Source: an uncultured Verrucomicrobiae bacterium (GTDB lineage: Bacteria; Verrucomicrobiota; Verrucomicrobiia; Limisphaerales; Palsa-1400). From it: a stretch of DNA of 64,000 nt. Below the pieces are notes generated by a model. That model ran no database searches, was not told where the DNA came from, and saw nothing but the letters and a program-made list of their open reading frames with translations. The position numbers and the translations under genes are program-made. The stretch covers positions 3,872,001-3,936,000 of the forward strand of contig OY969763.1 in the NCBI GenBank assembly GCA_963702845.1, read 5' to 3'. Shown here piece by piece: positions 13,286 to 56,239 of this stretch (the first letter of the stretch is position 1; each line of letters opens with the position of its first letter).

Positions 13286-13870
13286 ATGACAACTGCCAAC
13301 AAAGTCACGATCATTCGGATTTTGCTGGTCCCGTTTTTCATTGTCCAGGTCATCTACTACAATCGCACGGGCAACGCGGTGAATTGGTATTGCGCAATCG
13401 CCTCGTTTTTTGCCGCAGCGGTCGCTGATGGCATCGATGGCTACATTGCGCGCCATTTCAATCAACGCAGCGAACTCGGCGCAATTCTCGATCCGCTTGC
13501 TGACAAACTATTGCTCGTATCGGGAATTATTCTGTTGAGCATGGAGACCCGCTATTTCGTGCGGATTCCAATTTATCTCACCGCGACGGTCATCAGCCGT
13601 GATGTCATCCTGTTGATTGGAATGGCGATTATTCATTACACGGGGACAAAATTTTCCGTGCGCCCGCATTTGACCGGCAAAATTGCGACGGTTCTGCAGA
13701 TGGCGACGGTGCTGTGGACTTTGATAAAACTAAATCCAACCGTCCTGCCCTACATCACAATCCCGGCGGCTGTCTTTACGGGCGTTTCAGGGCTGATATA
13801 TGTTATCGATGGCATGTCGCACTTGAACACGCATCCATCAAGCGGCCCGACGCCGCCGAATCCAGCATGA
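13286..13870 (+). CDS. pgsA: CDP-alcohol phosphatidyltransferase (PgsA-like)
   Basis: ANKVTIIR and the DGIDGYIAR...[10 protein letters not shown] signature. Confidence 0.85.
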
Positions 13871-37926: not shown

Positions 37927-39844
37927 ATGAACAAGATCAAGGCGGTATTCAGCTTCGGCTGGCCCTATTTGTCGCGCTATTGGCAGCGTCTTGTCATTGG
38001 CGTCCTCCTTGGATTCATGTTTCGGTTTGGCGAACGGTAGCTTCATTTGGGCAACAAAGACGACGTTCGCGCGATTGACTCCGCCATCCGCCCAAACCAA
38101 TTCGGTTAGCGCATCGGCGCAAACAAATTCGCTGAGTGCATCCACCGCAACAGCGACCGACAAAAATTCACTAAAAGAAAAACTGAAACGCAAACTGAAT
38201 CGCGTTGGCGACGCAGTCGATCACGCCGTTGACCCGTGGTTGCCGAAAATTAATCGCAAGATCGACATGAAACAAATCATCGGCGGGCTTTTGCTGTTGC
38301 CGTTACTCGTCGGTATCCGCGGAGCGGCTAGTTATCTGAGTACGTATTGCCTTAGTTGGGTCAGCGAACGCGCGATGAACAATCTGCGTGTCGATATTCT
38401 GGCAAACTCAACACTCTTTCTCTGGATTTCTATCACCGTTCGAAAACCGGCGATCTCCTCCAACGCGTAAATTCGGACACGATCGCGTTGCAACAAGCAT
38501 TGAGTCTGGGATTCAGCGATCTGGTGAAGGAACCGATTACGATCATTATTCGTGTTAGCAGGATTGCTCATAGTCAGTGTCAAATTGACCCTTTTCGCGC
38601 TTTTATTCATGCCGTTGTGCATTGTGCCGATCGTTGTGCTCGGCAGAAAAGTCCGACGCGCCAGCAAAGACAGCAGCGCGCCTTTCATCGCCCAATTGAG
38701 TTTGTTAGTCGAAGCTTTTTCGGGCGTTCGCGTCATTAAAGCGTTTGCTCTCGAAAATCGACAACTGGAACGCTTTCGTGAAAATTGCAAGCAATTGACC
38801 AGCCACGGCATTCGAGGCATGAAGGCCAAAGCATTGGTCAATCCAATGATCGAGGTGATTGCACTGACTGGGTTGGGCGCGTTGATTGTTTACATTGTCG
38901 CGTCGGATACCACTTTGAGCGACATGATGGGTTTTCTCGTTGGCACGTTTATGTTGCTCGAACCGATCAAAAAACTGGCAAACGCGCACGTTACATTTGA
39001 GCAAACCAGCGTCGGCGTTGGACGGCTCATGGCGATTGCTCGCCGAACAACCGACCATCAAAGAAGCGCAGTCGCCCAAAGCCCTTCCGCAATTCAAGTC
39101 GGTGATCGCGTTCGAAAATGTCACTTTTTCCTACGGCGATAAACCCGCGCTTCACGGTGTGACTGTAAAAATTCCGCGAGGCTGCAAACTCGGTATCGCC
39201 GGCGAAAGCGGCTCGGGCAAGAGCACGATGGTCAATTTGTTGATGCGTTTTTACGATCCGACAATCGGGAACGGTGCAAATCGACGGGATCGATTTGAAA
39301 GACCTGGCGTTTGCTGACCTGCGCAACTCGATGGCCTTAGTGAGCCAGGATAATATTCTGTTCGACCAGACCGTCGCCGAAAACATCGGATGCGGCAAGC
39401 ACGGCGCAACGCGCGAGGAAATCGAAGAAGCAGCCAAAGCCGCGTCCGCGCACGAGTTCATCATGCAGCTCCCGCAAGGTTACGACACGAGAATCGGCGA
39501 GCGCGGCCAGACTCTCTCTGGCGGCCAACGCCAACGCATTGCGATTGCGCGCGCGTTTCATTCGCAACGCCCCAATTCTCGTGCTCGATGAAGCAACGGC
39601 GTCCCTCGACTCGCATGCTGAAATGGAAGTTCAGGCGGCGATTGAGCGTCTCGAAAAAAATAAGACCGTCATTTGTGTTGCGCACCGATTGTCGACGCTA
39701 ATGGAGATGGATCAGATCATTGTGCTGAAGGACGGACGCGTGGTCGAACAAGGAACATTTGACGAACTTATCCGCGCTGGCGGTGCGTTCGCTGGAATGG
39801 CGCGCAAACAGGGAATTTACGCGCAAATGCAGAACGTTGCTTAA
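37927..39844 (+). CDS. msbA: MsbA-like ABC exporter (several apparent frameshifts)
   Basis: TM domain, [42 protein letters not shown] before ATG 37927. Confidence 0.85.
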
Positions 39845-40908
39845 CTGCGCGATTTGGCCGCGAATCATTTCGAAAGCATGTTCGGGAGAGACTCGCGCCC
39901 AGGCATTTCGACTTGCCCAAAGCCTCACAAACATTCTCTTTGCGATTAATGCAGTCGCACGGCACGACAATTTGGCGATGCGCGTCTCCTGTCAGCATCC
40001 AATCCTTGATCGCGGGATAATCGCGTAAGAACGAAAACGTGCGCGTGCCCACCGCCGGCGCCAAATGAGTCACGCCTGAGTCGCCGCCAACTTGTAACAC
40101 GCACCGCTGCAAGAGCGCCGCGAGTTGCGGAATCGTTGGCAGAAGTGATCGTGGTGACTCGTTTGCTTTGCACGCCCTCGGCAAATGCTCGCAAGCGTTC
40201 CTGCTCGCGTTGTCTCGGCGATGCGGTTGCGACGATGTTCGCATCGACGTCAGCGCTTAGAATTTTTTTCGCCAATTGAATCCAATTCTCCACCGGCCAC
40301 TCCTTCACACACGAACTGGCGTTGATCGAAAAATGCATTGCGTGTGGAGGAATATTTTTCGACGCCCAGTCTTTTGCCGCATTCAGGAATGGCTAGATCA
40401 AATCGTGGCGGCTGAAGCGACATTCCAAGGTTCGAGAGCATCCGCCGCCGCTGCTCTGAAACGATGACGTCATTCGGCCTGTCGCGCCACCCAATGCGGG
40501 ATCAACCATTTCGCCCAAAAGTGTTTTCGCGAACCTTGTTGCGCGACACGCCACTTCGCGCCGGTAAATGCCGTCACGAAAATGGTTCGATCCGCACCGC
40601 TAAAGTTAATCGCCAAATCAAACTTCTCACGGCGAAGTGCGCGCAAGATTCCGATCCCGCGCCACCACGGCGGACTTTTTGCGCCGAGCGGGAATCCCCA
40701 GGCCACATCAACGCATGGCGCAAGCTTCAGCACTTCAGCGCCAAGCTCGGCCGATAATGTATGCAGTTGCGCGCCCGGGATAATTGCGTTTGATCTCCCA
40801 CAGCGCCGGAATCATGTGCACGGAGTCGCCAAGAAAACCGAAATCGACGACGATAATTTTGCGCGCGGATTTCGTTTGCTGATAAAACTCGCTCAGTGCA
40901 AACGCCAT
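39841..40908 (-). CDS. GT9 heptosyltransferase-like glycosyltransferase (several apparent frameshifts)
   Basis: FLGDSVHMIPAL, LRREKFDLAINF, KEWPVENW, GGDSGVTHLA. Confidence 0.85.
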
Positions 40909-40995
40909 TGCACCACGTAATAATGAAGTCAGTTTCGTTGCGACAGCAAAATCGGCTCGACATTTGGCAGCGTGTTTGAAAAAGTGAGCATTGGA

Positions 40996-42188
40996 ATGCC
41001 GGGCACACTTTCGCAACCAAAGACCGACACTGCTTCGTCCAAGCCCATGCCTGCACGCTGGGCCTGTTTCGCAGGGGCGCTGCTTTGGCTCATTCCCGCG
41101 ATTGTCGATCAGCATCATGGCCGGAACGCGTCCGGAGGTCCGCACCGTCAGCGGCAGCTATCATCTGGCCACCGCACAGTGGTGGGCCGGAAAGGACATT
41201 TACGTCGGGCCCTCGGGCATGAATTATTTTCCGCACTTCGTCGTGCTCTATACCCCTTTTCACCTGCTGCCGTTGGCAGTTGGCGAAGTTTTGTGGAGGT
41301 TGATTGCTATCAGCACTATCGCCACCGGCGTTTGGAAATTGATCCGCATGTTGTTGCCGGAAAATTCCAACAAAGCTTTTCTCCTCGCCACCCTTCTGGC
41401 CATGCCGCTCTCTCTTGGCGCGGTGCGCAACGGCAATTCGAATGCGGTTTTTGGTGGTGTGCTCCTGTGGGCGATCATCGCGATTCTCGACGAGCGTTGG
41501 TGGGCCGCGGCGCTCCTCACCATTCTTTCGATGATGATCAAACCGCTCGGCATTGTGTTGTTCCTTCTCGCCCCGTTGCATTATTCGAAAATGCGGGTGC
41601 CACTGGCAATTGGATTATCTGGCGATGTTGGTGTTCCCGTTCTTTTTCGGTAATCCCATATATGTGTGGTCCCAACACAAAGGGTTGGTGGCAAACCTGC
41701 AAAGTTGCGCCGTCGTCACCCAACATAGATTCGCCGACATCAATGGCATTTTCCGCACGTTTAAATCGGAACTGGGCCCGCAAACATCCAAAATCGTTCG
41801 CATCGTCGCCGGTGCTGTCACCGCAGCGCTGTGGTGGTGGGGTTCACGACGTCTCAACAAAACCCACGCCGCACTGTGGCTGCTCGCGCTCACGACATCG
41901 TATCTCATGTTATTCAACCCTATGACGGAAGCGAACAGCTACTCGATCGTCGCCCCTGCCCTCGCCGCGTGGGCGTGCATCTTTATCTTCGGTAGCAGCG
42001 AACTAAAGATTCCGCCCTACGGTTGGTTGATCGTTGGCATGGCGCTGACGATGGGATTGCTTCCCAATCTGGTCCGGCCAATGTTCGGCAATTACTTTGC
42101 GCTGCTCTGGCATCCGCTCATGATGATCGCGTTCCTCATCGTGCTGCTCTGCTTTGTTGAAACGCGGCCAAAACCGCAGACCACATGA
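40996..42188 (+). CDS. GT87/DUF2029-like polytopic membrane glycosyltransferase (two apparent frameshifts)
   Basis: YFPHFVVLYTPF, RNGNSN, IKP, NPMTEANSY; many TM helices. Confidence 0.75.
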
Positions 42189-43135
42189 GCACGATCGATA
42201 TTTCCATCGTCATCCCAGTTTACAATGAAGAGGAAAGCATCACGCCTCTTTACGAAAGGCTGACCGCCGCTCTCGTCAAACAGACTCGTCCATACGAAAT
42301 CATCTTCGTGAACGATGGCAGTTCCGATCGCTCGTTCGAAGTTTTGTCCGGTATCGCGGCTAAAGACAAAATGGTCAAAGCCATCAATTTTCGACGCAAC
42401 TTCGGCCAGACCGCAGCGATGACTGCCGGCTTCGATTTTGCCAACGGTCGCATCATCATCCCGATGGATGGCGATTTCCAAAACGATCCCGAGGACATTC
42501 CTCTTTTCGTCGCAAAACTTGAAGAAGGCTACGACGTCGTCAGCGGTTGGCGCAAAGACCGTCAGGACAAAGAAGTTATTCGCAAGATTTTCTCGCGCGT
42601 CGCCAATCGTCTCATCGCATCCATCACCGGCGTCAAACTGCACGATTCCGGCTGTTCGATGAAAGCCTATCGCAGCGAAGTGCTCAAAGGCACTCGGCTC
42701 TACGGCGAAATGCACCGATTCATTCCGGCCCTGGCCAATTTGATGGGCGCTAAAATTTGCGAAGTCGAAGTTCGCCATCACGCCCGCCAGTTCGGCAAAA
42801 GTAAATACGGCCTGAAACGCACGGTGAAAGTTGCGCTGGACTTGATCACCGTAAAATTCCTCGCCGAATTTTCGACCAAACCCCTCTATATGTTCGGGGG
42901 CATTGGCTCGATTCTCTTTACGCTTGGGTTTTTGTCCGGTGCCGAAACGCTCTGGGAAAGATGGGCCTACGGCACGTTCGTCCATCGCAACCCGTTCATT
43001 CTCCTCGCCATTTTCCTCGCGAGCCTTGGCATTAATTTTATCCTGATGGGACTTTTGGCCGAGTTGATCGTGCGCACGTATCACGAGTCGCAAAACAAAC
43101 CCATCTATCACATCCGCGAAACGCGCAATCTGTAG
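42185..43135 (+). CDS. GT2 polyprenol-phosphate glycosyltransferase (ArnC/GtrB-like)
   Basis: VIPVYNEEE, NDGSSD, RNFGQTAA, MDGDFQNDP, GEMHRFIP; two C-terminal TM helices. Confidence 0.92.
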   Translation: MSTIDISIVIPVYNEEESITPLYERLTAALVKQTRPYEIIFVNDGSSDRSFEVLSGIAAKDKMVKAINFRRNFGQTAAMTAGFDFANGRIIIPMDGDFQNDPEDIPLFVAKLEEGYDVVSGWRKDRQDKEVIRKIFSRVANRLIASITGVKLHDSGCSMKAYRSEVLKGTRLYGEMHRFIPALANLMGAKICEVEVRHHARQFGKSKYGLKRTVKVALDLITVKFLAEFSTKPLYMFGGIGSILFTLGFLSGAETLWERWAYGTFVHRNPFILLAIFLASLGINFILMGLLAELIVRTYHESQNKPIYHIRETRNL

Positions 43136-43138
43136 TCC

Positions 43139-45031
43139 ATGTGCGGCATCACCGGAATCGTAGACACAAAAGCACCGATAGATCGCGACGTCTTGTCGCG
43201 CATGGCCAACGCCTTGCACCATCGCGGCCCGGACGACGAGAGCTACTATATTTCTGATCCCAAATCCGGTCGTGCCAACGTCGGTTTCGGATTTCGCCGC
43301 CTTTCCATCATCGACCTCAGTGGCGGGCGCCAACCGATGTGCAACGAAGACGGCACACTCTGGCTGGTCTGTAACGGCGAGATTTACAACTTCCTCGAAC
43401 TCAAAACGCGCCTCGTCGCAAGCGGCCACAAATTCAAAACCGGTTCCGACGTCGAAGTCCTGCTCCACCTTTACGAAGAGCACGGCGAAGATTGCATCCA
43501 ACACGTCAACGGCATGTTCGCCTTTGCGATTTGGGACGCGACCAACCAGAAGCTGTTCCTCGGCCGCGATCGCCTTGGCAAAAAACCGCTCTATTATCGC
43601 GACGCCCCAACGCACATCATCTTCGGTTCCGAAGTCAAAGCGCTCCTGCAATACCCGCAGTGCCCGCGCGAATTGGATTCCGCCAGCCTGAGTAAATATT
43701 TGGCTTACGAATACGTCCCCGCGCCACACTGCATTTTCAAGGGCGTCCACAAACTTCCAGCCGGCCACTGCCTGAGTTGGACCAACGGCAAGACCACCGT
43801 TCGTCAGTATTGGGACGTGCAGTTTGGAAAAGTAACTGTTGGGTCCAATGAAAATGAAATCGCCGAACAGCTACGCGAACGGCTGAAAGAATCGGTTCGT
43901 TTGCGCCTCATCAGCGACGTTCCGCTCGGCGTCTTTCTTAGCGGCGGAATCGATTCCAGTTCCGTCGTCGCGCTCATGTCCGAGTTGCGCCCGGCTAAAA
44001 ACATCAAAACGTTCGCTATCGGCTTCGATGTCGCGTCGTTTGACGAATCGCATCATGCGCGGCGAATCGCCGAGTTTTTTGGCACCGATCATCAAGAGCA
44101 CATTTTCAAAAGCAGCACGCTCATCGAAACGTTGCCCGATGTCGCTGCATTTATGGACGAGCCGTTGGGTGACGCCTCCATCGTGCCCACTTACCTGCTC
44201 TCAAAATTTACCCGCGAGCACGTGACCGTTGCGCTTGGCGGCGACGGCGGCGACGAACTGTTCGCCGGCTATCCAACCTTCCAGGCCGATCGAGCCGCGC
44301 GACTGTGTCCGTTATCAGCCGCAGTAAAAACTCTCGCAACACCGATCGCAAACCTGCTGCGCTCATCCGGTGAGAACTTCAGTCTCGATTTCAAGGTAAA
44401 ACAATTTCTACGCGGACTCGGTCATCCCGCTGAAATTCGCAATCAACGATGGCTCGGCTCATTTACGCCAGACGAACAACGTGAACTGCTGGTGGCCGGT
44501 AGCCCAATCGACAATTACGACGACATCGCTCAAGCAACCGCAAATTCCGCAACCAGCGACGCCATCGACCGACTGACCTACTTTTACTGCAAGTTCTACC
44601 TGCAAGACGACATCCTCACCAAAGTCGATCGCGCAAGCATGGCGTGCTCCTTGGAAGTGCGCGCTCCCTTCCTCGATTACACATTCGTCGAATTTGCCAA
44701 CAGCATCCCGTCACACCTGAAACTTCGCGGCTTGACCACCAAATACATCCTGAAGAAAGCCATGGCCGGCAAACTGCCGCAGGACATCATCGGCCGCGGC
44801 AAGAAAGGTTTCGGAATTCCCGTCGCCAAATGGTTCCGCAACGAGATGCGCGACATGGTCGCCGATTACTTCTCCGAAACCCGCATCCGCCAGCAAGGCA
44901 TCTTTAACGAGCGCACCATCTCACGCCTCTGGCACGAACATCAAAGCGGCCGCCATGACCATCGCAAACAACTCTGGACGTTGTTCATGTTCCAACTCTG
45001 GTTCGACAAATACATGCACGGTAATTCGTAG
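43139..45031 (+). CDS. asnB: Asparagine synthase-family glutamine amidotransferase
   Basis: MCGITG, HRGPD, RRLSIID, LSGGIDSS, GDGGDELFAGY, EVRAPFLD. Confidence 0.95.
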   Translation: MCGITGIVDTKAPIDRDVLSRMANALHHRGPDDESYYISDPKSGRANVGFGFRRLSIIDLSGGRQPMCNEDGTLWLVCNGEIYNFLELKTRLVASGHKFKTGSDVEVLLHLYEEHGEDCIQHVNGMFAFAIWDATNQKLFLGRDRLGKKPLYYRDAPTHIIFGSEVKALLQYPQCPRELDSASLSKYLAYEYVPAPHCIFKGVHKLPAGHCLSWTNGKTTVRQYWDVQFGKVTVGSNENEIAEQLRERLKESVRLRLISDVPLGVFLSGGIDSSSVVALMSELRPAKNIKTFAIGFDVASFDESHHARRIAEFFGTDHQEHIFKSSTLIETLPDVAAFMDEPLGDASIVPTYLLSKFTREHVTVALGGDGGDELFAGYPTFQADRAARLCPLSAAVKTLATPIANLLRSSGENFSLDFKVKQFLRGLGHPAEIRNQRWLGSFTPDEQRELLVAGSPIDNYDDIAQATANSATSDAIDRLTYFYCKFYLQDDILTKVDRASMACSLEVRAPFLDYTFVEFANSIPSHLKLRGLTTKYILKKAMAGKLPQDIIGRGKKGFGIPVAKWFRNEMRDMVADYFSETRIRQQGIFNERTISRLWHEHQSGRHDHRKQLWTLFMFQLWFDKYMHGNS

Positions 45032-45065
45032 AATTTTCAAATCTGAAATCTCAAATTTCAAATTG
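45031..45065. repeat. Heptamer tandem repeat (AAATCTC-like)
   Basis: aattttc aaatctg aaatctc aaatttc aaattg. Confidence 0.65.
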
Positions 45066-45348
45066 CGGAGCCCAGGCCGCATCACTCTTTACATAAGCAG
45101 TCATTTCATGTCACCACCTCATCGCGCTCCAGGGCGCATTGGGTTCGCCCAACCGCTCTTTGACATCAATGTTTATCAAACGGTCATCGAAGGTTCATTC
45201 AAGGCTCACAGAAGCCTCATGGAAAATGCAGGAAACTGAGGCAAAATGAGCCGAAATGCCTTGAAATGAACCTTCCCGAGAAAAAAAATTCACCGAATCA
45301 ATTTTCTCGCGTGTGCCAGCAGTGATTGCATACTTTTGCTCGAACTAA

Positions 45349-46113
45349 ATGGAGCCCAAACTCCCCATTTCCGTCTGCCTCATTTCCGGCGCTGAAGCCC
45401 ATCGCATCGGCCAGGCGCTCAAGAGCGTCGCCGACTGGACCAGCGAAATCGTTGTCGTCCTGAACGAAAACGTTAGCGATGGCACGGATAAGATTGCTGA
45501 GTCGTTTGGCGCGAAAGTGTTTCGTGAACCGTGGCGCGGTTTCATCAAACAGAAAAACTCCGCTTCCGACAAAGCGACCCAGCCGTGGATCCTCGGTATC
45601 GATGCTGACGAAGTTGTGTCTGACTCCCTCCGTGCCGAAATTGCAGCGACACTGAAATCTGCAACCTGTGCCGCCTACGAATTTCCCCGTTGCACCTTTT
45701 TCTTCGACCGCTGGATACGCCACGGCGATTACTACCCAGATCGCGTCACGCGTTTGTGGCGAAAAGACTGCGCGCACTGGGCCGGCATCGAACCACACGC
45801 GCACCTCGACGTGCAAGGCGAAATCGGCCGGCTTAAGTCCGACCTGCTCCACTACAGCAACGAAAGCATCGATCGCCAGATCGCAAAAATTGCGCCATAT
45901 AGCGATGACTTCGTTCAGGATTACATCGCAAAAAACAAACATGTCAGCGCGCTCGACTTGGTTGGCCGTCCGTTCTGGCGTTTCTTTCGCTCGTATATTT
46001 TACGTCGCGGCTTTCTCGACGGTCGCCCCGGACTTTACATCGCAAGTCTCACCGCGTTTTCGACCCTCACGCGCTACATGAAAGTTCTGGAAGCGCGGCA
46101 AAAACCGAAGTGA
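45349..46113 (+). CDS. GT2 glycosyltransferase (WaaE/KdtX-like)
   Basis: SDGTDKIA, WRGFIKQKN, WILGIDADE, YPDRVTRL, GFLDG. Confidence 0.9.
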   Translation: MEPKLPISVCLISGAEAHRIGQALKSVADWTSEIVVVLNENVSDGTDKIAESFGAKVFREPWRGFIKQKNSASDKATQPWILGIDADEVVSDSLRAEIAATLKSATCAAYEFPRCTFFFDRWIRHGDYYPDRVTRLWRKDCAHWAGIEPHAHLDVQGEIGRLKSDLLHYSNESIDRQIAKIAPYSDDFVQDYIAKNKHVSALDLVGRPFWRFFRSYILRRGFLDGRPGLYIASLTAFSTLTRYMKVLEARQKPK

Positions 46114-46913
46114 AACCGAGCATCGCACTGGTCATCAACACGTATCAGCAGCCCGAATACCTCGGTCGCGTGCTTCGTGCTGTGTCGGCGCAATGCGATG
46201 CGCCGGATGAACTCTGGGTCGCCGAAGACGACACGCACGCGCAAACGGCGGAGGTATTCAAAGCGTGGTTTAAATCACAAAAAATTCCCGGGGGTCACGC
46301 CAGCCAGGAACACCATGGGTTTCGTCGCTCCAGCATACTTAACGAAGCTATCGCGCGGGCAAAAGCCAACTACGTTGTCTTTCTCGACGGCGACACATTA
46401 CCGCATCCCCAATTCATTTCCGATCACCGCGCACTCGCGCAATCAGGAATGTTCGTCCAAGGCCACCGCGCGCTAATTGAAAAAAAAGCCGCCAAATACT
46501 TCGGCCTCCACAACTTCGCCAGTGACCGTCGAAAAGCATTACTAAGTTTCCAACTGCGCGGCCTCAAACACGCCTATCGCTGGCCGGTTCCGCAGAAGCG
46601 CACTCGGTCCGACTTGCACGGCATTCGTGGCTGCAACCTCGGCATTTGGCGTTGTGATTTACTCAAAGTGAACGGCTACAACGAAGCGTTCGTAGGCTGG
46701 GGCCGAGAAGATTCCGAGCTCGCAGTGCGTCTGATGAACTCCGGCATTCAGCGTATGGACGTGCGCGGACGCGCCATGTGCTACCACCTCTGGCATCCGC
46801 CGGCCAGTCGCGCCGGGCTCGCCACCAACGACAACTTGCTCCAACAAGCTATCGACACAAAAGCGCGCCGCTGCGAAACAGGCTTGGCCAAACACGCGCC
46901 GCAACCTGCCTGA
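46110..46913 (+). CDS. GT2 glycosyltransferase with C-terminal GT7-like motif
   Basis: YVVFLDGD, GCNL, VNGYNEAFVGWGREDSEL. Confidence 0.9.
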   Translation: MKPSIALVINTYQQPEYLGRVLRAVSAQCDAPDELWVAEDDTHAQTAEVFKAWFKSQKIPGGHASQEHHGFRRSSILNEAIARAKANYVVFLDGDTLPHPQFISDHRALAQSGMFVQGHRALIEKKAAKYFGLHNFASDRRKALLSFQLRGLKHAYRWPVPQKRTRSDLHGIRGCNLGIWRCDLLKVNGYNEAFVGWGREDSELAVRLMNSGIQRMDVRGRAMCYHLWHPPASRAGLATNDNLLQQAIDTKARRCETGLAKHAPQPA

Positions 46914-46916
46914 GTC

Positions 46917-48077
46917 ATGTCACCACTGCGCATTATTCATCTGAACTCCTTGCTCACCGGCGGCGGCACGGATGATCAATGCGTCAAAGTTGCTCATGGT
47001 CTGCAACAACTGGGACAAGACGTTCGCATCGCCGGTCCCGAAGGACGCTATTTTTCCAAAGTCATCCTTGAATTGAACGTGCCGTTCCGCAATACCGGCA
47101 ATACCAAATCGAAGATCAAATTCGTCGTGCGCGCCGCGAAATTCATTCGCGAACACAAACCGCACATCGTGCACGGACACCATGGTCGAGACATTTGGCC
47201 GACGATTCTCGCAACGCGACTTTCTGGCATTCGGCCAAAACTCGTCCTCACGCGGCACATGGCCAAAAGCCCCAGTTCTTGGGCAAGCCGCAATTTCATC
47301 TTGGCTCAATGCGACGCCTTGATCGCCGTTTCAAAATTCGTTGAAAAAATCCTGACCAAAGGCATGGACGACCGCAGGTCACCGGAACACGAGCGCTGGC
47401 ATCGACCTCCGATACTGGGCGACTACAAAAAAATTCATGTGATTCGTCCCGGCATCGACACGAACAAATTTCGGCCCGCACATGCTGAAGCAATGCGCAA
47501 GCAACTCGGTTTGCAACCAGAGCACTTCGCTTTCGCAGTGACCGGCGGTTACGACCTCCCGCGCGGCAAAGGTCAGCGCGAATTCCTCCGCGCCGCCGCA
47601 TCGATTCACAACAAAATCGTAAATGCTCGTTTCCTCATCATCGGCCGCGGCAACATGGAATCGATTCTCAAGGCCGACATCGACCAACTCGGCCTGCAAG
47701 GTAAGGCCTGGCTCACCGGCCAAATGTCCGACATGCCGCAAGTGATGAACGCGATCGATTGCCTGGTGCATCCGCAAATCGGCACCGAAGCCCTCGGCCT
47801 CGTTCTCTGCGAAGCCCACGCCTGCGGCAAACCGGTCATCGCCAGCGATCTCGACGGCATCCCCGAAGCCTTCGCCGCCGGCAACCTCGGCCAACTCGTT
47901 CCGCCCGAGGATGTCAACAAACTCGCCGAAGCGATGTTTGCTCAAATCAACGCTCCTCTGCCCACCGACGCGCAAAAAAACGAAATGCACGCCCGCGTCG
48001 GAGCGCAGTTCTCGTTGCAACGTGCCGCCACCGAAACTCTGGCTCTCTATCGCGAACTCGTCGGCGCAAAAATCTGA
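46917..48077 (+). CDS. GT4 glycosyltransferase
   Basis: KGQREFL and EALGLVLCEAHACGKPVIASDLDGIPE. Confidence 0.92.
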   Translation: MSPLRIIHLNSLLTGGGTDDQCVKVAHGLQQLGQDVRIAGPEGRYFSKVILELNVPFRNTGNTKSKIKFVVRAAKFIREHKPHIVHGHHGRDIWPTILATRLSGIRPKLVLTRHMAKSPSSWASRNFILAQCDALIAVSKFVEKILTKGMDDRRSPEHERWHRPPILGDYKKIHVIRPGIDTNKFRPAHAEAMRKQLGLQPEHFAFAVTGGYDLPRGKGQREFLRAAASIHNKIVNARFLIIGRGNMESILKADIDQLGLQGKAWLTGQMSDMPQVMNAIDCLVHPQIGTEALGLVLCEAHACGKPVIASDLDGIPEAFAAGNLGQLVPPEDVNKLAEAMFAQINAPLPTDAQKNEMHARVGAQFSLQRAATETLALYRELVGAKI

Positions 48078-48129: not shown

Positions 48130-48780
48130 ATGCATTGGTTCGCTCAGATTGAACCTTTTACGAGCCACCCCGGGTTGGGAGCGCTCATCGGATACCTTTT
48201 TGGCTGTTTCACCACTGGATATTATTTAGTGCGTTGGCGCACCGGTCAGGACATTCGCCAAATCGGTAGCGGCAGTTGCGGCGCACGCAATGTCGGTCGT
48301 CAACTCGGCAAAGTCGGCTTCTTCCTCACGCTCCTCGGAGACTTTTGGAAAGGCGCTGCTGCAGTTCTTCTAACTCGTTACCTCACCGCAAACGAAACCG
48401 CGATTCTGTTGACGATCATCGGCGTTGTCGTAGGGCACATATGGCCGATTCAACTAGGATTCCACGGCGGCAAAGGTGTTGCCACCTGCATGGGCGCACT
48501 TAGCTTCTTCGCGTTCAGTCTCGCGATTTCCTACTGCGCGCTCGCCGTTCTCGGCATCATCATTTTTCGCAAGAGTGTCATTCCGGGATTGATCGCTTTT
48601 GCGCTTCTGCCGGCCGTTGCCTACTTCCTGAAGTTCGACACCCGATCCCTCGCGGCGATTTCCGTTCTTGCCTCTATTATTTTGACTGCTCACTATCGCA
48701 ACGTGATTCAGGAGATCAACCAATTGCTGCCGCGACATGGCAAAGTCGAGGTGCAACCCAAGGCAGAATCAACCAAATGA
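48130..48780 (+). CDS. plsY: PlsY-like acyl-phosphate acyltransferase
   Basis: GYLFG, DIRQIGSGSCGARNVGR, DFWKG, GHIWP..GFHGGKGVAT, HYRN; alternative start at 48112; stop overlaps next ATG (ATGA). Confidence 0.85.
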   Translation: MHWFAQIEPFTSHPGLGALIGYLFGCFTTGYYLVRWRTGQDIRQIGSGSCGARNVGRQLGKVGFFLTLLGDFWKGAAAVLLTRYLTANETAILLTIIGVVVGHIWPIQLGFHGGKGVATCMGALSFFAFSLAISYCALAVLGIIIFRKSVIPGLIAFALLPAVAYFLKFDTRSLAAISVLASIILTAHYRNVIQEINQLLPRHGKVEVQPKAESTK

Positions 48781-50423
48781 ACATTAACGACCGCCCTCCG
48801 CTCCATTTCAAAATTGCGTCGGAAGAATCGGAGTTCGAGCAAATCCACCAGCTCAATTACAAAACTTTCGTCGAAGAAATTCCACAGCATCAACCTTCGA
48901 CCACTCCACGCCTCGTGGACAAATTTCACGCCGAGAACACGTATCTGATCTGCCTGTGCGGCGGTCAACTCGTCGGTATGATGGCAGTGCGTGGCAATCG
49001 TCCTTTTTCGCTCGATCAAAAACTTGCCAAGCTCGATGAACATCTGCCGCAACGTCAGAAGCCTTGCGAGATTCGACTCCTCGCCGTTGAAAAAGAGTTT
49101 CGTTCCGGCCAGGTCTTTCGCGGCCTCCTGGCGCTCCTTTGGCAACACGGCCTTGAACGCGGCTACGACCTCTGCGTCATCTCCGGCACCACCCGCCAAA
49201 CCAAACTTTATCGTCACCTCGGCTTCGCCCCCTTCGGTCCGCTCCTCGGCACTGGCGATGCCATGTTCCAGCCGATGTATATCACGTTGGAAACGTTCGA
49301 GAATTATGCCGAAGAATTTTTTCGGGCAGGGTTAAAACAATCCGGCCCCGCTAATTTCCTGCCCGGCCCCGTCGCGATTCACAAGGAGGTCCGCAAAGCG
49401 TTCGAGCAAATGCCGCAATCGCATCGCAGCGACGGTTTCATGGCGGAAGTGCAGGAGTTGAAAAACCGCCTGTGCGCAATGGTCAGTGCCAGGCACGTTC
49501 AAATCCTCCTCGGCTCCGGCACACTCGGCAACGACACCGTCGCCGCGCAACTTTCTCTGGAATCCAATCCCGGGCTCGTCATCAGTAACGGCGAATTCGG
49601 CGATCGCCTCGCCGATCACGCCAAACGCATGGGACTGACTTTCGACACGCTAAAACTTCCGTGGGGGCAACCCTACGACCTGGCCGCAATCAAACATTTT
49701 CTTCAACGCGCTCCAAGTGTTGGCTGGATTTGGTGTGTTCACGGCGAAACGTCGGTCGGCATGCTCAATCCCTTGGAGGCTCTGAAACAAATTTGCGCCA
49801 GACACAAAATCAAATTGGCGGTCGATTGCATCAGCACGATCGGCCTCCTGCCCGTGAATCTCGAGGGCGTGTTTCTCGCCACGTGCGCCAGCGGCAAAGG
49901 CCTTGGCTCCTATCCCGGTCTCTCGCTCGTTTTCTATCAACAGGAAATAGTGCCCGCGCCGAAGCTCCCCCGTTATCTCGACCTTGGCCTCTACGCGAAG
50001 TGCAATGGCATCGCATTCACCCATTCATCGAATCTCCTGCACGCGCTCGATGCCGCCATCAAACGAGTCAATTGGGTTCAGAAATACAAAGAGGTTGGTG
50101 AAACCAGCGCCTGGTTGCGCAGTCGCTTGCGCGAATCCGGCTTTGATTTGATCGCTTCCGAAGAGCACGCCGCGCCGGGTGTCGTCACCATCACGTTGCC
50201 TGCGGAAATCAATTCCTCCGACTTCAGCGCGCAATTGCAACAAGCCGGTTACCTTGTCAGTTCCGGCAGCGATTACCTTCGGACACGGAACTGGATCCAG
50301 ATCTGTTTGATGGGCGAATACTCGCGTCAGAAAATCAACGAGCTCCTTTACTGGATGAAACGCTTTGCTTCGCCCAAAGAGAAAACAGCAAGCAAGCCCG
50401 AAGCGCAACCGGCTGTTCGTTAG
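48777..50423 (+). CDS. Fusion of a GNAT/N-acyl amino acid synthase-like domain and a class V PLP aminotransferase
   Basis: N-terminal IHQLNYKTFVEE, CEIRLLAV, LYRHLGF; C-terminal FLPGP, SHRS, GSGT, NGEFGDR, HGETSVG..NP, VDCIS, SGKGL (PLP lysine). Confidence 0.85.
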   Translation: MNINDRPPLHFKIASEESEFEQIHQLNYKTFVEEIPQHQPSTTPRLVDKFHAENTYLICLCGGQLVGMMAVRGNRPFSLDQKLAKLDEHLPQRQKPCEIRLLAVEKEFRSGQVFRGLLALLWQHGLERGYDLCVISGTTRQTKLYRHLGFAPFGPLLGTGDAMFQPMYITLETFENYAEEFFRAGLKQSGPANFLPGPVAIHKEVRKAFEQMPQSHRSDGFMAEVQELKNRLCAMVSARHVQILLGSGTLGNDTVAAQLSLESNPGLVISNGEFGDRLADHAKRMGLTFDTLKLPWGQPYDLAAIKHFLQRAPSVGWIWCVHGETSVGMLNPLEALKQICARHKIKLAVDCISTIGLLPVNLEGVFLATCASGKGLGSYPGLSLVFYQQEIVPAPKLPRYLDLGLYAKCNGIAFTHSSNLLHALDAAIKRVNWVQKYKEVGETSAWLRSRLRESGFDLIASEEHAAPGVVTITLPAEINSSDFSAQLQQAGYLVSSGSDYLRTRNWIQICLMGEYSRQKINELLYWMKRFASPKEKTASKPEAQPAVR

Positions 50424-54288: not shown

Positions 54289-54364
54289 GCGGTTCGGATG
54301 CGACGTTGCAATTTCGGACAGAGATCATTTTAACTTTTAACAACTAACTCAAAAATATTTGCCT

Positions 54365-55548
54365 ATGGGCATGTGGATTGGACGAAATAGAAAAGCACGC
54401 GTCACCTACGGTTTCGACGAAATCGCTCTGGTGCCGGGTGAAATCACGATCAACCCCAACGAAGTTGATACGAGCTTCAAGATTCCGCGCAAAGACGGCA
54501 GCGACATCAAGCTGAAGATTCCGATCATCGCCAGCGCGATGGACGGCGTCACCGACGTGAAGTTCTGCGTCGAAATGGGCAAGCTCGGCGGACTCGGTGT
54601 GATCAATCTCGAAGGCGTGCAGACGCGCTACGAGAACCCGAGCGAAGTTCTCGAACAAGTCGTCAAAGCCGACAAGGACGAAGTCACCACGCTGATTCAG
54701 AAACTTTATCTGGAACCGATCAAAGAAGAGTTGATCGCCAAGCCGCGTCCAAGAATTGAAAAAGGCCGGCGTCCTCGCCGCCGTCAGTTCCATTCCGCAA
54801 AAGGCGGAGCGCTATCGGCTGCATCGCGCAAGAAGCGGGCGCGGATATTTTTGTGGTGCAATCGACCGTTTCGACCGTGAAACACATTTCCACCGAATAC
54901 AAATCGCTCGAACTCGAAGCGTTCTGCAAAGCGATGAACATTCCGGTGATCATCGGCAATGCCGTTACTTACAATGTCACGCTGCAATTGATGCAGTAGC
55001 GGCGTTGCCGGTGTCCTGATCGGGGTCGGGCCCGGAGCGGCTTGCACCAGCCGCGGCGTTTTGGGCCTTGGCGTTCCCCAGGTCACTGCGACCGTCGATT
55101 GCGCTGCAGCGCGCGATTATTATTTCAAACAAACCGGCACGTTACATCCCAATCATCACCGACGGCGGCATGAGCAAGGGCGGCGATGTTTGCAAAGCGT
55201 TGGCCTGCGGCTCAGATGCCGTCATGGTCGGCAGTGCTTTCGCCCGCGCCAAAGAAGCGCCCGGCAAAGGCAATCACTGGGGCATGGCCACGCCGCACGC
55301 GAACCTGCCGCGCGGCACGCGCATCAAGGTCGGCGTGACCGGCTCGTTGAAACAGATTCTGTTTGGTCCGGCCACGGTGGATGATGGTTCACAAAACCTT
55401 GTCGGGGCGATTACGACCTGCATGGGCAACGTCGGCGCCTCGACGCATCCGTCAATTTCAAGAGACGGAAATCATCATCGCGCCGAGCATCAAGACCGAA
55501 GGCAAATTGTTCCAAACGGTGCAGAGCGTCGGCATGGGCACGCGCTAG
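54365..55548 (+). CDS. guaB: GuaB3-type IMP dehydrogenase-related protein (several apparent indels)
   Basis: YGFDEIALVP, ASAMDGV, IGVGPGAACTSR, TDGG, VMVGS, WGMA; no CBS pair. Confidence 0.9.
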
Positions 55549-55598
55549 AGGCTGCTTTGAAGCTTGCGCCTCGCGAGGTTCTGATAGAAGAAGAGCGG

Positions 55599-56239
55599 GT
55601 GTCGAGCCAGCAAACATTTCGATTGGGAATTCTTGGATTCGGGAAAAGGTTCCAATGCCATGGCTATCGTTGATGCTTGTGAGGGTGGAAAAATTCCGGC
55701 GCAAGTCGCAATCGTGTTGAGTGATGTTGCTGATGCTGGCATTTTGGAAGGCGCGCAGGTGCGCGGGTTGAACAGCCGGCACATCGAGCCCGGGAAATTT
55801 CGGACAAAACTCGACGAAGCGGCCGAGGTCGCATTCATCAAAGCTTTGCAGGAAGCGAAGGTGGATTTGGTCGTGCTGGCGGGCTTCATGCGCATTCTTA
55901 AAGGCGAGTTTTTGCGCGTTTTCAAAGATCGGGTCATCAATATCCATCCTTCGTTGCTGCCGTCGTTTCCAGGGCTTCAGGCTTGGAAGCAGGCTTTGGA
56001 TTATGGCGTGAAGTTCACTGGTGTGACGGTGCATTTCGTTGATCAGGGTATTGATACCGGACCGATCATCGCGCAGGAAACTGTGCCGATTTTACAAGGG
56101 GATACCGCGAGAAACTTTGCACAAGCGCATTCAGGAGGCGGAACATCGGTTGTATCCCGCGGCGGTCGCTGCACTGGCGCGAGGGGATGTTGCGGTGCGA
56201 GGACGGCAGACCATTTGGAAACAAACGGCTGGAGTTTGA
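55599..56239 (+). CDS. purN: Phosphoribosylglycinamide formyltransferase (apparent frameshifts near both ends)
   Basis: SGKGSN, LAGFMRIL, NIHPSLLPSFPG, GVTVHFVD..DTGPII, EAEHRLYP. Confidence 0.95.

Follow-up and report, generated by a model that had tools for sequence, protein, structure and literature searches.

What does a PlsY-like acyltransferase gene make together with the gene that it overlaps, whose product joins a GNAT domain to a class V aminotransferase? The pair lies in a 64,000-nucleotide stretch of DNA from an uncultured Verrucomicrobiae bacterium, hereafter the window, and the reading we favor, with a probability of roughly 0.6 judged from sequence, is a two-gene, three-activity candidate pathway in which DHAP would be converted to serinol phosphate and then N- and O-acylated to give the precursor of serinophospholipids. 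The backbone of these lipids is presented, in the available part of a 2025 report, as the third type in phospholipids, next to glycerol and sphingoid bases (Vyssotski et al.), and a described gene set for them was not found in the literature searched.

The initial annotation had seen a plsY-like gene overlapping an intact 548-aa gene through ATGA, and had taken the latter for a fusion of a GNAT/N-acyl synthase-like domain with a class V PLP domain. Both observations held, the overlap on rereading the letters and the fusion through Pfam and NCBIfam profiles and structure comparison (Table 1). Several other genes of the window are apparently split by indels, while both members of the pair are intact, and their four-base overlap recurs at 45 of the 51 measurable junctions (the window plus homologous loci). 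A promoter and terminator scan gave no signal exceeding that of shuffled sequence. Glycosyltransferase and asparagine-synthase genes lie upstream (42185-48077); they were considered as module members and rejected, because no neighbor family except the pair itself is common to all homologous loci.

Table 1 Features of the gene pair, in window positions
Feature	Positions	Strand	Evidence and candidate role
PlsY paralogue (GARN-motif subfamily, 216 aa)	48130-48780	+	PF02660, E 2.9e-35; candidate O-acyltransferase, predicted acceptor serinol phosphate, predicted donor acyl-phosphate
ATGA stop/start overlap, translational coupling	48777-48780	+	read from sequence
Synthase gene (548 aa), GNAT + class V aminotransferase	48777-50423	+	internal stops: 0
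GNAT domain (about residues 1-183), N-acyl amino acid synthase/autoinducer synthase kind	48777-49325	+	PF21926, PF13444; candidate N-acyltransferase
Class V (fold type I) PLP domain (about residues 190-548)	49344-50423	+	PF00266; candidate DHAP:amine transaminase

The PlsY paralogue and the synthase form a real module in soil Verrucomicrobia, Bacilli, and other bacteria. Across 201 genomes of the order, the synthase GNAT occurs in 68 and the paralogue in 60, all within those 68, leaving the paralogue in 0/133 synthase-less genomes, though these counts come from related genomes and are not independent. Among 48 Bacilli synthase carriers, 46 have the paralogue, 35 of them adjacent, and the genus Limisphaera (that of Limisphaera sp. 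4302-co) has the adjacent pair in 4/4 genomes. Complete PlsY-GNAT-AT fusions in a single protein were found in three sequence clusters (P0156, from a Nibricoccus MAG; P0122; and P0144/P0285, from two assemblies, with a single ORF in L308), a count that excludes P0054 and P0219, which look like frameshift products (the PlsY profile stops at 131 and 141 of 164). Five order genomes show long open frames upstream of the synthase, which were likewise rejected as fusions, being GC-rich alternate frames. At eight metagenome loci the paralogue is absent and a PlsC/OlsA-type (PF01553) acyltransferase lies directly downstream of, or is fused to, the GNAT; seven of the eight belong to one related group. 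In the tree, one side of a branch with SH-aLRT 95 holds the PlsYs adjacent to the synthase in both phyla, together with one fusion and 11 Bacilli paralogues that are unlinked, and the opposite side holds the canonical PlsYs of both phyla.

Conservation of the pair, on which the initial annotation had made its proposal depend, thus stands across phyla, the Limisphaera genomes included, but not every lineage keeps the two genes coupled. Counted against our reading are 16 genomes of the homologous-locus set that carry the synthase with canonical plsY only, four order genomes (92-96% complete) with the paralogue and a GNAT-only gene from which the subfamily aminotransferase is absent, and at least 9 of 353 Bacilli that retain the paralogue and lack the synthase. 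Two further synthase-less Bacilli have a GARN-motif protein under the score cut-off, and at five metagenome loci the paralogue accompanies a GNAT-only gene, with the aminotransferase locally absent. Such genomes with one gene and not the other, and the DegV/FakB-like gene that the paralogue adjoins instead in some Bacilli, could speak for a loose linkage, in which the product of the synthase is an N-acyl amide, soluble or secreted, and the paralogue acylates G3P as an accessory enzyme whose acyl or regulatory properties are altered. We regard this as highly improbable, given the complete absence of the paralogue from synthase-less order genomes, the conserved ATGA overlap and the existence of fusions, the replacement of the paralogue by a second acyltransferase family, and the gathering of the paralogues on one cross-phylum branch.

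The paralogue is not the housekeeping enzyme of its genome: the second, canonical plsY for which the initial annotation had proposed to look was found elsewhere, adjoining gpsA, and its product shares 30% identity with the window paralogue. Compared with canonical PlsY (Aquifex aeolicus, PDB 5xj5-5xj9; PMC5700162), the paralogue keeps the PF02660 fold, the phosphate clamp, and the phosphate hole, and its predicted model resembles 5xj5-5xj8 at TM 0.74-0.83, but it scores under the cut-offs of the NCBIfam PlsY equivalogs NF001254 and TIGR00023 (111.5 vs 199 bits; 111 vs 137.2) and belongs to the separate branch. In the Aquifex enzyme, S35, R45, K104, and N180 bind the acceptor phosphate and Ser142 binds the 2-OH (PMC5700162). 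The window paralogue retains the equivalents of S35, R45, H92, K104, H177, and N180, but is substituted at Thr41 (to Arg), Asn37 (to Ser), and Ser142 (to Gly). The first of these columns holds R/K in 105/110 paralogues and T in 49/50 canonical PlsYs, with Arg as the alternative residue in 3.0% of 7,288 PlsY homologues; in the last, S is found in 2/110 paralogues vs 50/50 canonical PlsYs, although its loss is weak evidence, since Ser142 is conserved in just 52.6% of PlsYs at large.

The clamp itself varies among lineages. Verrucomicrobial paralogues (n = 72) keep S35 in 70, R45 in 67, K104 in 71, and N180 in 70, whereas one Bacilli group has lost R45 in 10/13 and N180 in 11/13, which we count against our reading. 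This loss would suit an unphosphorylated route, in which the synthase makes N-acyl serinol, the paralogue O-acylates it into N,O-diacylserinol, an analogue of ceramide or DAG, and a head group is added later from PE or PG by a sulfatase-family or other transferase. LtaS-like sulfatase genes do follow the synthase at 4/47 Bacilli loci and in one plasmid record, and the Gemella haemolysans nas gene expressed in E. coli yields, in the available part of its description, N-oleoyl serinol, in line with what the initial annotation had stated of N-acyl serinol formation by gut bacteria. We consider the unphosphorylated route unlikely, as the verrucomicrobial paralogues retain the binders of the acceptor phosphate (67-71/72) and no third conserved gene was found across homologous loci. 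Under the serinol-phosphate reading, the free N-acyl serinol obtained when a synthase gene is expressed by itself in E. coli would be a dephosphorylated shunt product, diverted from membrane-lipid synthesis, and may by analogy stand to the serinol lipid pathway as commendamide does to the glycine lipid.

The N-terminal half of the synthase is matched by PF21926 FeeM (residues 23-155, E 1.1e-10, 42 bits vs a cut-off of 27) and by PF13444 (31.9 bits, cut-off 22.4), and more weakly by profile to the autoinducer synthase 5w8a/5w8c (E 0.0013); its residues E34, E98, R100, and S136 are kept in 138/138 homologues. Aminotran_5 (PF00266) covers residues 214-386, and the PLP-site residues K374, D350, F274, and G246/G248 are invariant in the same 138 homologues. 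By fold, the PLP domain resembles the AEP transaminase 7e7g, PH1308 (2dr1), and AGT (1vjo), with TM to target of 0.81-0.85 and 22-28% sequence identity to these structures, and its nearest characterized relatives, sharing 21-28% identity with it, belong to the AEP and alanine/serine:glyoxylate transaminases. Bacillaceae proteins built in the same way share 43-48% identity with the window synthase, and a search of the ESM Atlas returned same-architecture clusters with automatic names and nothing else. The best NCBIfam match of the synthase, PhnW-AepZ, scores 153 bits where the cut-off is 361, and other equivalogs also fall short (BhcA, 69 vs 650 bits; SerC, 20 vs 253 bits).

What sets the PLP domain apart from these families is its carboxylate site. 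Gln508 replaces the carboxylate-binding Arg in 137/138 homologues and 93/97 distant representatives, whereas the Arg is present in 7e7g, 1vjo, 2yri, 2dr1, and 6/6 aligned controls, and the domain has SHRS where 7e7g reads SWDS. It thus differs from PhnW/AepZ (2-aminoethylphosphonate transaminase) in scoring below the equivalog and in missing the C-terminal carboxylate-binding Arg, and from the serine/alanine:glyoxylate and phosphoserine aminotransferases in Gln508 vs their Arg and in scoring below their equivalogs. The exchange suits a carboxylate-free substrate, e.g., DHAP. An amino-acid donor would also have to bind without the Arg, a point counted against the best reading. His216-Arg217 was considered as a phosphate site like that of phosphoserine aminotransferase and dropped, because 7/8 ordinary controls carry both residues and the pair is hence non-diagnostic for phosphate binding.

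Loss of the Arg would also fit a decarboxylase, and, with AEP and glyoxylate transaminases as its nearest characterized relatives, the PLP domain might form a different amino alcohol, from another ketose phosphate or by decarboxylation, that is then N- and O-acylated. Ethanolamine phosphate and aminopropanol phosphate offer the partner acyltransferase no free hydroxyl. Such a partner requires one, and an amino-diol is therefore favored over ethanolamine phosphate. The presence of the pair in every Limisphaera-genus genome also speaks against another amine, as does an N-acyl serinol cluster recorded from a Bacillus, in whose group the architecture is common (MIBiG BGC0001683, Bacillus sp. 2_A_57_CT2, named in the available part of PMC12795557). 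We find a different amine rather improbable.

We therefore keep serinol phosphate as the proposed intermediate. The PLP domain would transaminate DHAP to serinol phosphate, the GNAT domain, as judged from its family, would N-acylate the amine using acyl-ACP, and the PlsY paralogue would O-acylate the free CH2OH using acyl-phosphate supplied by the single PlsX. The two acylations might proceed in either order, and the predicted product, N,O-diacyl-serinol phosphate, would be an analogue of phosphatidic acid, to which ordinary CdsA and CDP-alcohol transferases could add head groups; no dedicated second PlsX or CdsA copies were found, with one match each in 5/5 genomes. More tentatively, and at somewhat less than even odds, the pair may be the committed entry to serinophospholipids, with the paralogue (Thr41 to Arg, Ser142 to Gly) taking a mirror-image, archaeal G1P-like serinol phosphate whose hand is set by the aminotransferase with its rebuilt carboxylate site. 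The serinophospholipid backbone reportedly has the S configuration; if this hand is right, the pair would show a bacterial acyltransferase accepting archaeal-like stereochemistry.

The two-gene candidate makes the serinophospholipid pathway experimentally testable, proposes a function for a PlsY subfamily, and predicts that many bacteria of soil, and many spore formers, have amide-linked phospholipids so far unrecognized. If the committed-entry reading is true, such lipids would be made by roughly 30% of the genomes sampled from a soil Verrucomicrobia order and by roughly a tenth of the sampled Bacilli, not by one hot-spring bacterium. Gut N-acyl serinol would then be a by-product of a membrane pathway, and this GPR119 agonist would be recast as an intermediate of membrane synthesis.

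Among known systems, the N-acyl serinol synthase of Cohen et al. 2017 (hm-NAS) is said to fuse a GNAT domain to an aminotransferase, a build that we liken by description to the PF13444/FeeM-type GNAT and the aminotransferase with intact PLP site of the window synthase. It differs in being described, in the available part of the source, as a single gene for a host-active mono-acyl amide, with neither a partner O-acyltransferase nor a membrane role in that description. The names Gemella and Bacillus sp. 2_A_57_CT2 were absent among the 120 homologue matches listed and in the protein clusters searched. RtxA's N-terminal domain (Bradyrhizobium elkanii) turns DHAP into serinol phosphate, taking Glu, Ala, or Asp as donor, according to the available part of PMC3222319. 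It is a precedent, as the initial annotation had supposed, for the step proposed for the PLP domain, but it is joined to dihydrorhizobitoxine synthase, is not lipid-related, and is likened by reaction, not sequence (of 141 plasmid matches, the 45 that were listed included no RtxA sequence). The serinophospholipids that the initial annotation had associated with Limisphaera are indeed published, in a paper cited alongside the description of that genus as far as the available text goes (Vyssotski et al. 2025, J. Nat. Prod. 88:373; Anders et al. 2015). They are the proposed end products, reported from the genus whose sampled genomes all have the pair, but are a lipid class, whereas the module here is a gene set.

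The module works like the OlsBA/GlsBA pathway but is not a member of it. OlsB/OlsA and GlsB/GlsA join an amino acid to a 3-hydroxy fatty acid, O-acylate the hydroxyl of that fatty acid, and give phosphorus-free lipids. In the available part of its description, GlsB/GlsA performs N-acylation and then O-acylation to yield a diacyl glycine lipid. The likeness lies in an N-acyltransferase linked to an O-acyltransferase, with a PF01553 partner in the eight replacement loci reproducing the GlsB/GlsA layout, whereas here a PLP domain fused to the GNAT would supply the amine, and in most loci the partner belongs to the PlsY family (PF02660), with a phosphate clamp.

The initial annotation had described a plsY-like gene overlapping, through ATGA, an intact gene in which a GNAT domain is fused to a class V PLP aminotransferase (hereafter the synthase), and this arrangement was borne out in the window sequence. 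Neither gene reached an NCBIfam equivalog cut-off.

Coordinates and domain evidence for the paired genes of the window
Feature	Position	Strand	Evidence
PF02660 plsY-like gene, 216 aa	48130-48780	+	Pfam match, sequence
Synthase gene, 548 aa	48777-50423	+	FeeM/PF13444 GNAT domain and class V PLP domain, both above Pfam cut-offs

Confident structure models were obtained for both proteins (mean pLDDT 90.6 and 90.5). In structure searches the synthase resembled transaminases of class V, with TM to target of 0.81-0.85, and the plsY-like protein resembled Aquifex PlsY (TM 0.74-0.83). The genome holds two PF02660 genes, and because the other, a canonical plsY, directly precedes gpsA and is only 30% identical to the window copy, the latter is a paralogue. 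Elsewhere in this genome, a second GNAT-PLP fusion outside the window (L388:2704-4473; G000:C1 about 983700-985476) joins a GNAT domain 26% like that of the synthase to a class I/II aminotransferase (PF00155). A CDP-alcohol phosphatidyltransferase gene (window 13286-13870) lies 34 kb upstream of the pair with no sign of linkage to it, and ABC transporter, GT9 glycosyltransferase, GT87-like, and guaB-like genes are split across several frames (window 37991-41145, 40991-42188, and 54359-55673), probably through assembly indel errors.

Comparative analysis revealed that the pair is a real, dedicated, and widespread module. Among the best 78 loci out of 452 stretches encoding a relative, mostly from Verrucomicrobia, a plsY-like gene lay directly upstream of the synthase in 61 (two cut by contig ends and one frameshifted) and not in 17 (one for want of DNA), and the ATGA overlap was repeated at 45 of 51 measurable junctions. 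Within the order, 80 of 201 sampled genomes matched the synthase at 1e-20. In 12 of these the match, at 26-32% identity, was only to an ordinary enzyme of class V, and they were dropped; the 68 carriers that remained comprised 60 full-length genes, five GNAT-only genes, and three cut by contig ends. A paralogue subfamily profile, built from 18 adjacent PlsYs (nine from genomes in this sample), detected the subfamily in 60 of the 201 genomes, all among the 68 carriers, and in 0 of the other 133, though carrier counts are tallies rather than tests because related genomes are not independent. The class-wide sample (n = 351 genomes) yielded 21 synthase matches, 19 in the order and two in one other family, both of the latter with a plsY-like neighbour. 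In Bacilli, 48 of 401 genomes carried the synthase, with the paralogue adjoining it in 34 of 47 examined loci and also in the 48th; 55 genomes scored at least 180 bits with the subfamily profile (46 with and nine without the synthase), a cut-off placed at a score gap and chosen after the scores were known, and of 23 matches at 153-166 bits, four were inspected, two having a GARN motif and two being canonical. The adjacent pair was present in 4/4 genomes sampled for the genus of Limisphaera sp. 4302-co, the group in which the initial annotation had especially proposed checking co-occurrence of the two genes. In Bacillus toyonensis, a pair with overlapping genes is carried by a 290-kb record (L112, NZ_CP126528.1) that is typed as a conjugative plasmid, so the module may be mobile.

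Exceptions were also found. In 16 genomes the sole plsY accompanying the synthase was a canonical one (13 with one match and three with two halves at contig ends). Four genomes of the order (G027, G095, G177, and G077; L119, L120, L121, and L122) had the paralogue and a GNAT-only gene without an aminotransferase of this subfamily. In L119-L122, L335, L336, L346, L347, and L375, the GNAT-only gene follows the paralogue and terminates cleanly at around 185 residues. At least nine Bacilli carried the paralogue without the synthase, and one Bacilli paralogue group has lost R45 and N180 (all PlsY residues are numbered as in Aquifex PlsY) and adjoins a DegV gene. The module is therefore not obligatory, and these cases may represent decay or variant products.

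For the aminotransferase domain, PLP residues K374, D350, and F274 were invariant in 138/138 sequences, the query counted. A carboxylate-binding Arg is described in all aminotransferases (PMC6797613), and its column in our alignment is occupied by Gln508 of the synthase. Gln was found there in 137/138 homologues, 93/97 full-length distant representatives, and 29/30 stand-alone domains, against Arg in all six of nine ordinary class V controls that aligned at this column, which fits a substrate without a carboxylate. Precedent for such a substrate, as the initial annotation had stated, was confirmed in RtxA, which converts DHAP to serinol phosphate (PMC3222319). The His216-Arg217 pair, although invariant, was dropped as evidence of a phosphate site because 7/8 controls share it. 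Thirty stand-alone aminotransferases (P0243-P0283) keep the Gln signature, and L368 and L371 encode the GNAT and the aminotransferase in two neighbouring genes.

Aquifex PlsY grips the phosphate of G3P in a clamp made of S35, R45, K104, and N180 and binds the 2-OH of G3P through S142 and H177; its residues for acyl-phosphate binding are T41 and H92 (PMC5700162). When 110 synthase-adjacent PlsYs were compared with 50 canonical proteins, the former kept S35 (108/110), R45 (102/110), H92 (109/110), K104 (108/110), and H177 (103/110), but had R or K at T41 in 105/110 (T in 49/50 canonical) and S at S142 in 2/110 versus 50/50, the latter loss being tempered by only 52.6% conservation of S142 among PlsYs at large. 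N180 was kept in 70/72 verrucomicrobial rows but seldom in those from Bacilli, where the C-termini are short. In a quick tree made with IQ-TREE (86 of 181 rows, midpoint root only), a branch with SH-aLRT 95 had on one of its sides the adjacent PlsYs of both phyla, one fusion, and 11 Bacilli paralogues not linked to the synthase. We infer that the paralogue remains active, transferring acyl groups from acyl-phosphate to a phosphorylated acceptor that is changed at carbon 2. Unlinked GARN-type paralogues (L214-L225, L234-L238, and L243) occur both in Bacilli that carry the synthase and in Bacilli that lack it; many show changes at R45 and N180, and they often adjoin a DegV/FakB-like gene. A third PlsY subfamily in Bacilli (L227-L233; GASN motif, S35 and R45 lost) forms its own long branch (support 100).

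Most likely, the PLP domain would first convert DHAP to serinol phosphate, the GNAT domain would N-acylate it, the paralogue would then O-acylate the product, and ordinary CdsA and CDP-alcohol transferases would take over; the genome encodes one PlsX, one CdsA, and three CDP-alcohol transferases. The serinophospholipids of Vyssotski et al. 2025 reportedly comprise serinol phosphoethanolamines of N,O-diacyl and N-acyl type, whose core has S configuration and corresponds to G1P. If the core has this hand, the phosphate arm is predicted to enter the rebuilt carboxylate site of the aminotransferase, and the PlsY changes to serve a mirror-image backbone. Comparative evidence lends good support to this proposed role in serinophospholipid synthesis.

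As to the N-acyl serinol synthase that the initial annotation had named, Gemella nas yields N-oleoyl serinol in E. coli (bioRxiv 2025.04.11.648385), and it is by its two-domain architecture that the window synthase would belong to this family. BGC0001683 is named in PMC12795557, the serinophospholipid paper is cited in PMC13388977, and PMC13608581 holds no polar-lipid data; further sources were PMC10407893 and PMC11271093, and PMC8027125 was set aside as irrelevant. Among the literature matches listed, no serinophospholipid gene set was found, though these genes may already be named in Cohen 2017, Vyssotski 2025, or Anders 2015, or in their supplements.

Complete PlsY, GNAT, and aminotransferase single chains occurred in three sequence clusters: P0156 (from a Nibricoccus metagenome-assembled genome), P0122, and P0144/P0285 (found in two assemblies and verified as a single ORF in L308). 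Two further candidates appear frameshifted and were left out. Of 80 metagenome loci, 38 had a PlsY-like gene, 25 lacked one despite >900 bases upstream, and 17 were too short or without a detected GNAT. Some metagenome modules are flanked by cyclopropane fatty-acyl synthase, patatin, and fatty-acid desaturase genes (L328, L333, L351, and L365), and in several Bacillaceae an LtaS-like sulfatase-family gene directly follows the synthase (L111:6599-8452, L134, L136, L138, and L181:5541-7463), whose product could add a glycerol-phosphate head. Eight loci without a PlsY-like gene, seven of them one related group, have a PF01553 PlsC/OlsA-type acyltransferase directly downstream or GNAT-fused (L369), so two unrelated O-acyltransferase families serve the same synthase. 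This synthase and O-acyltransferase layout is that of GlsB/GlsA (PMC10666787), and, unless the 2025 serinophospholipid paper already names its genes, the candidate module would be a new variant of two-step aminolipid pathways.
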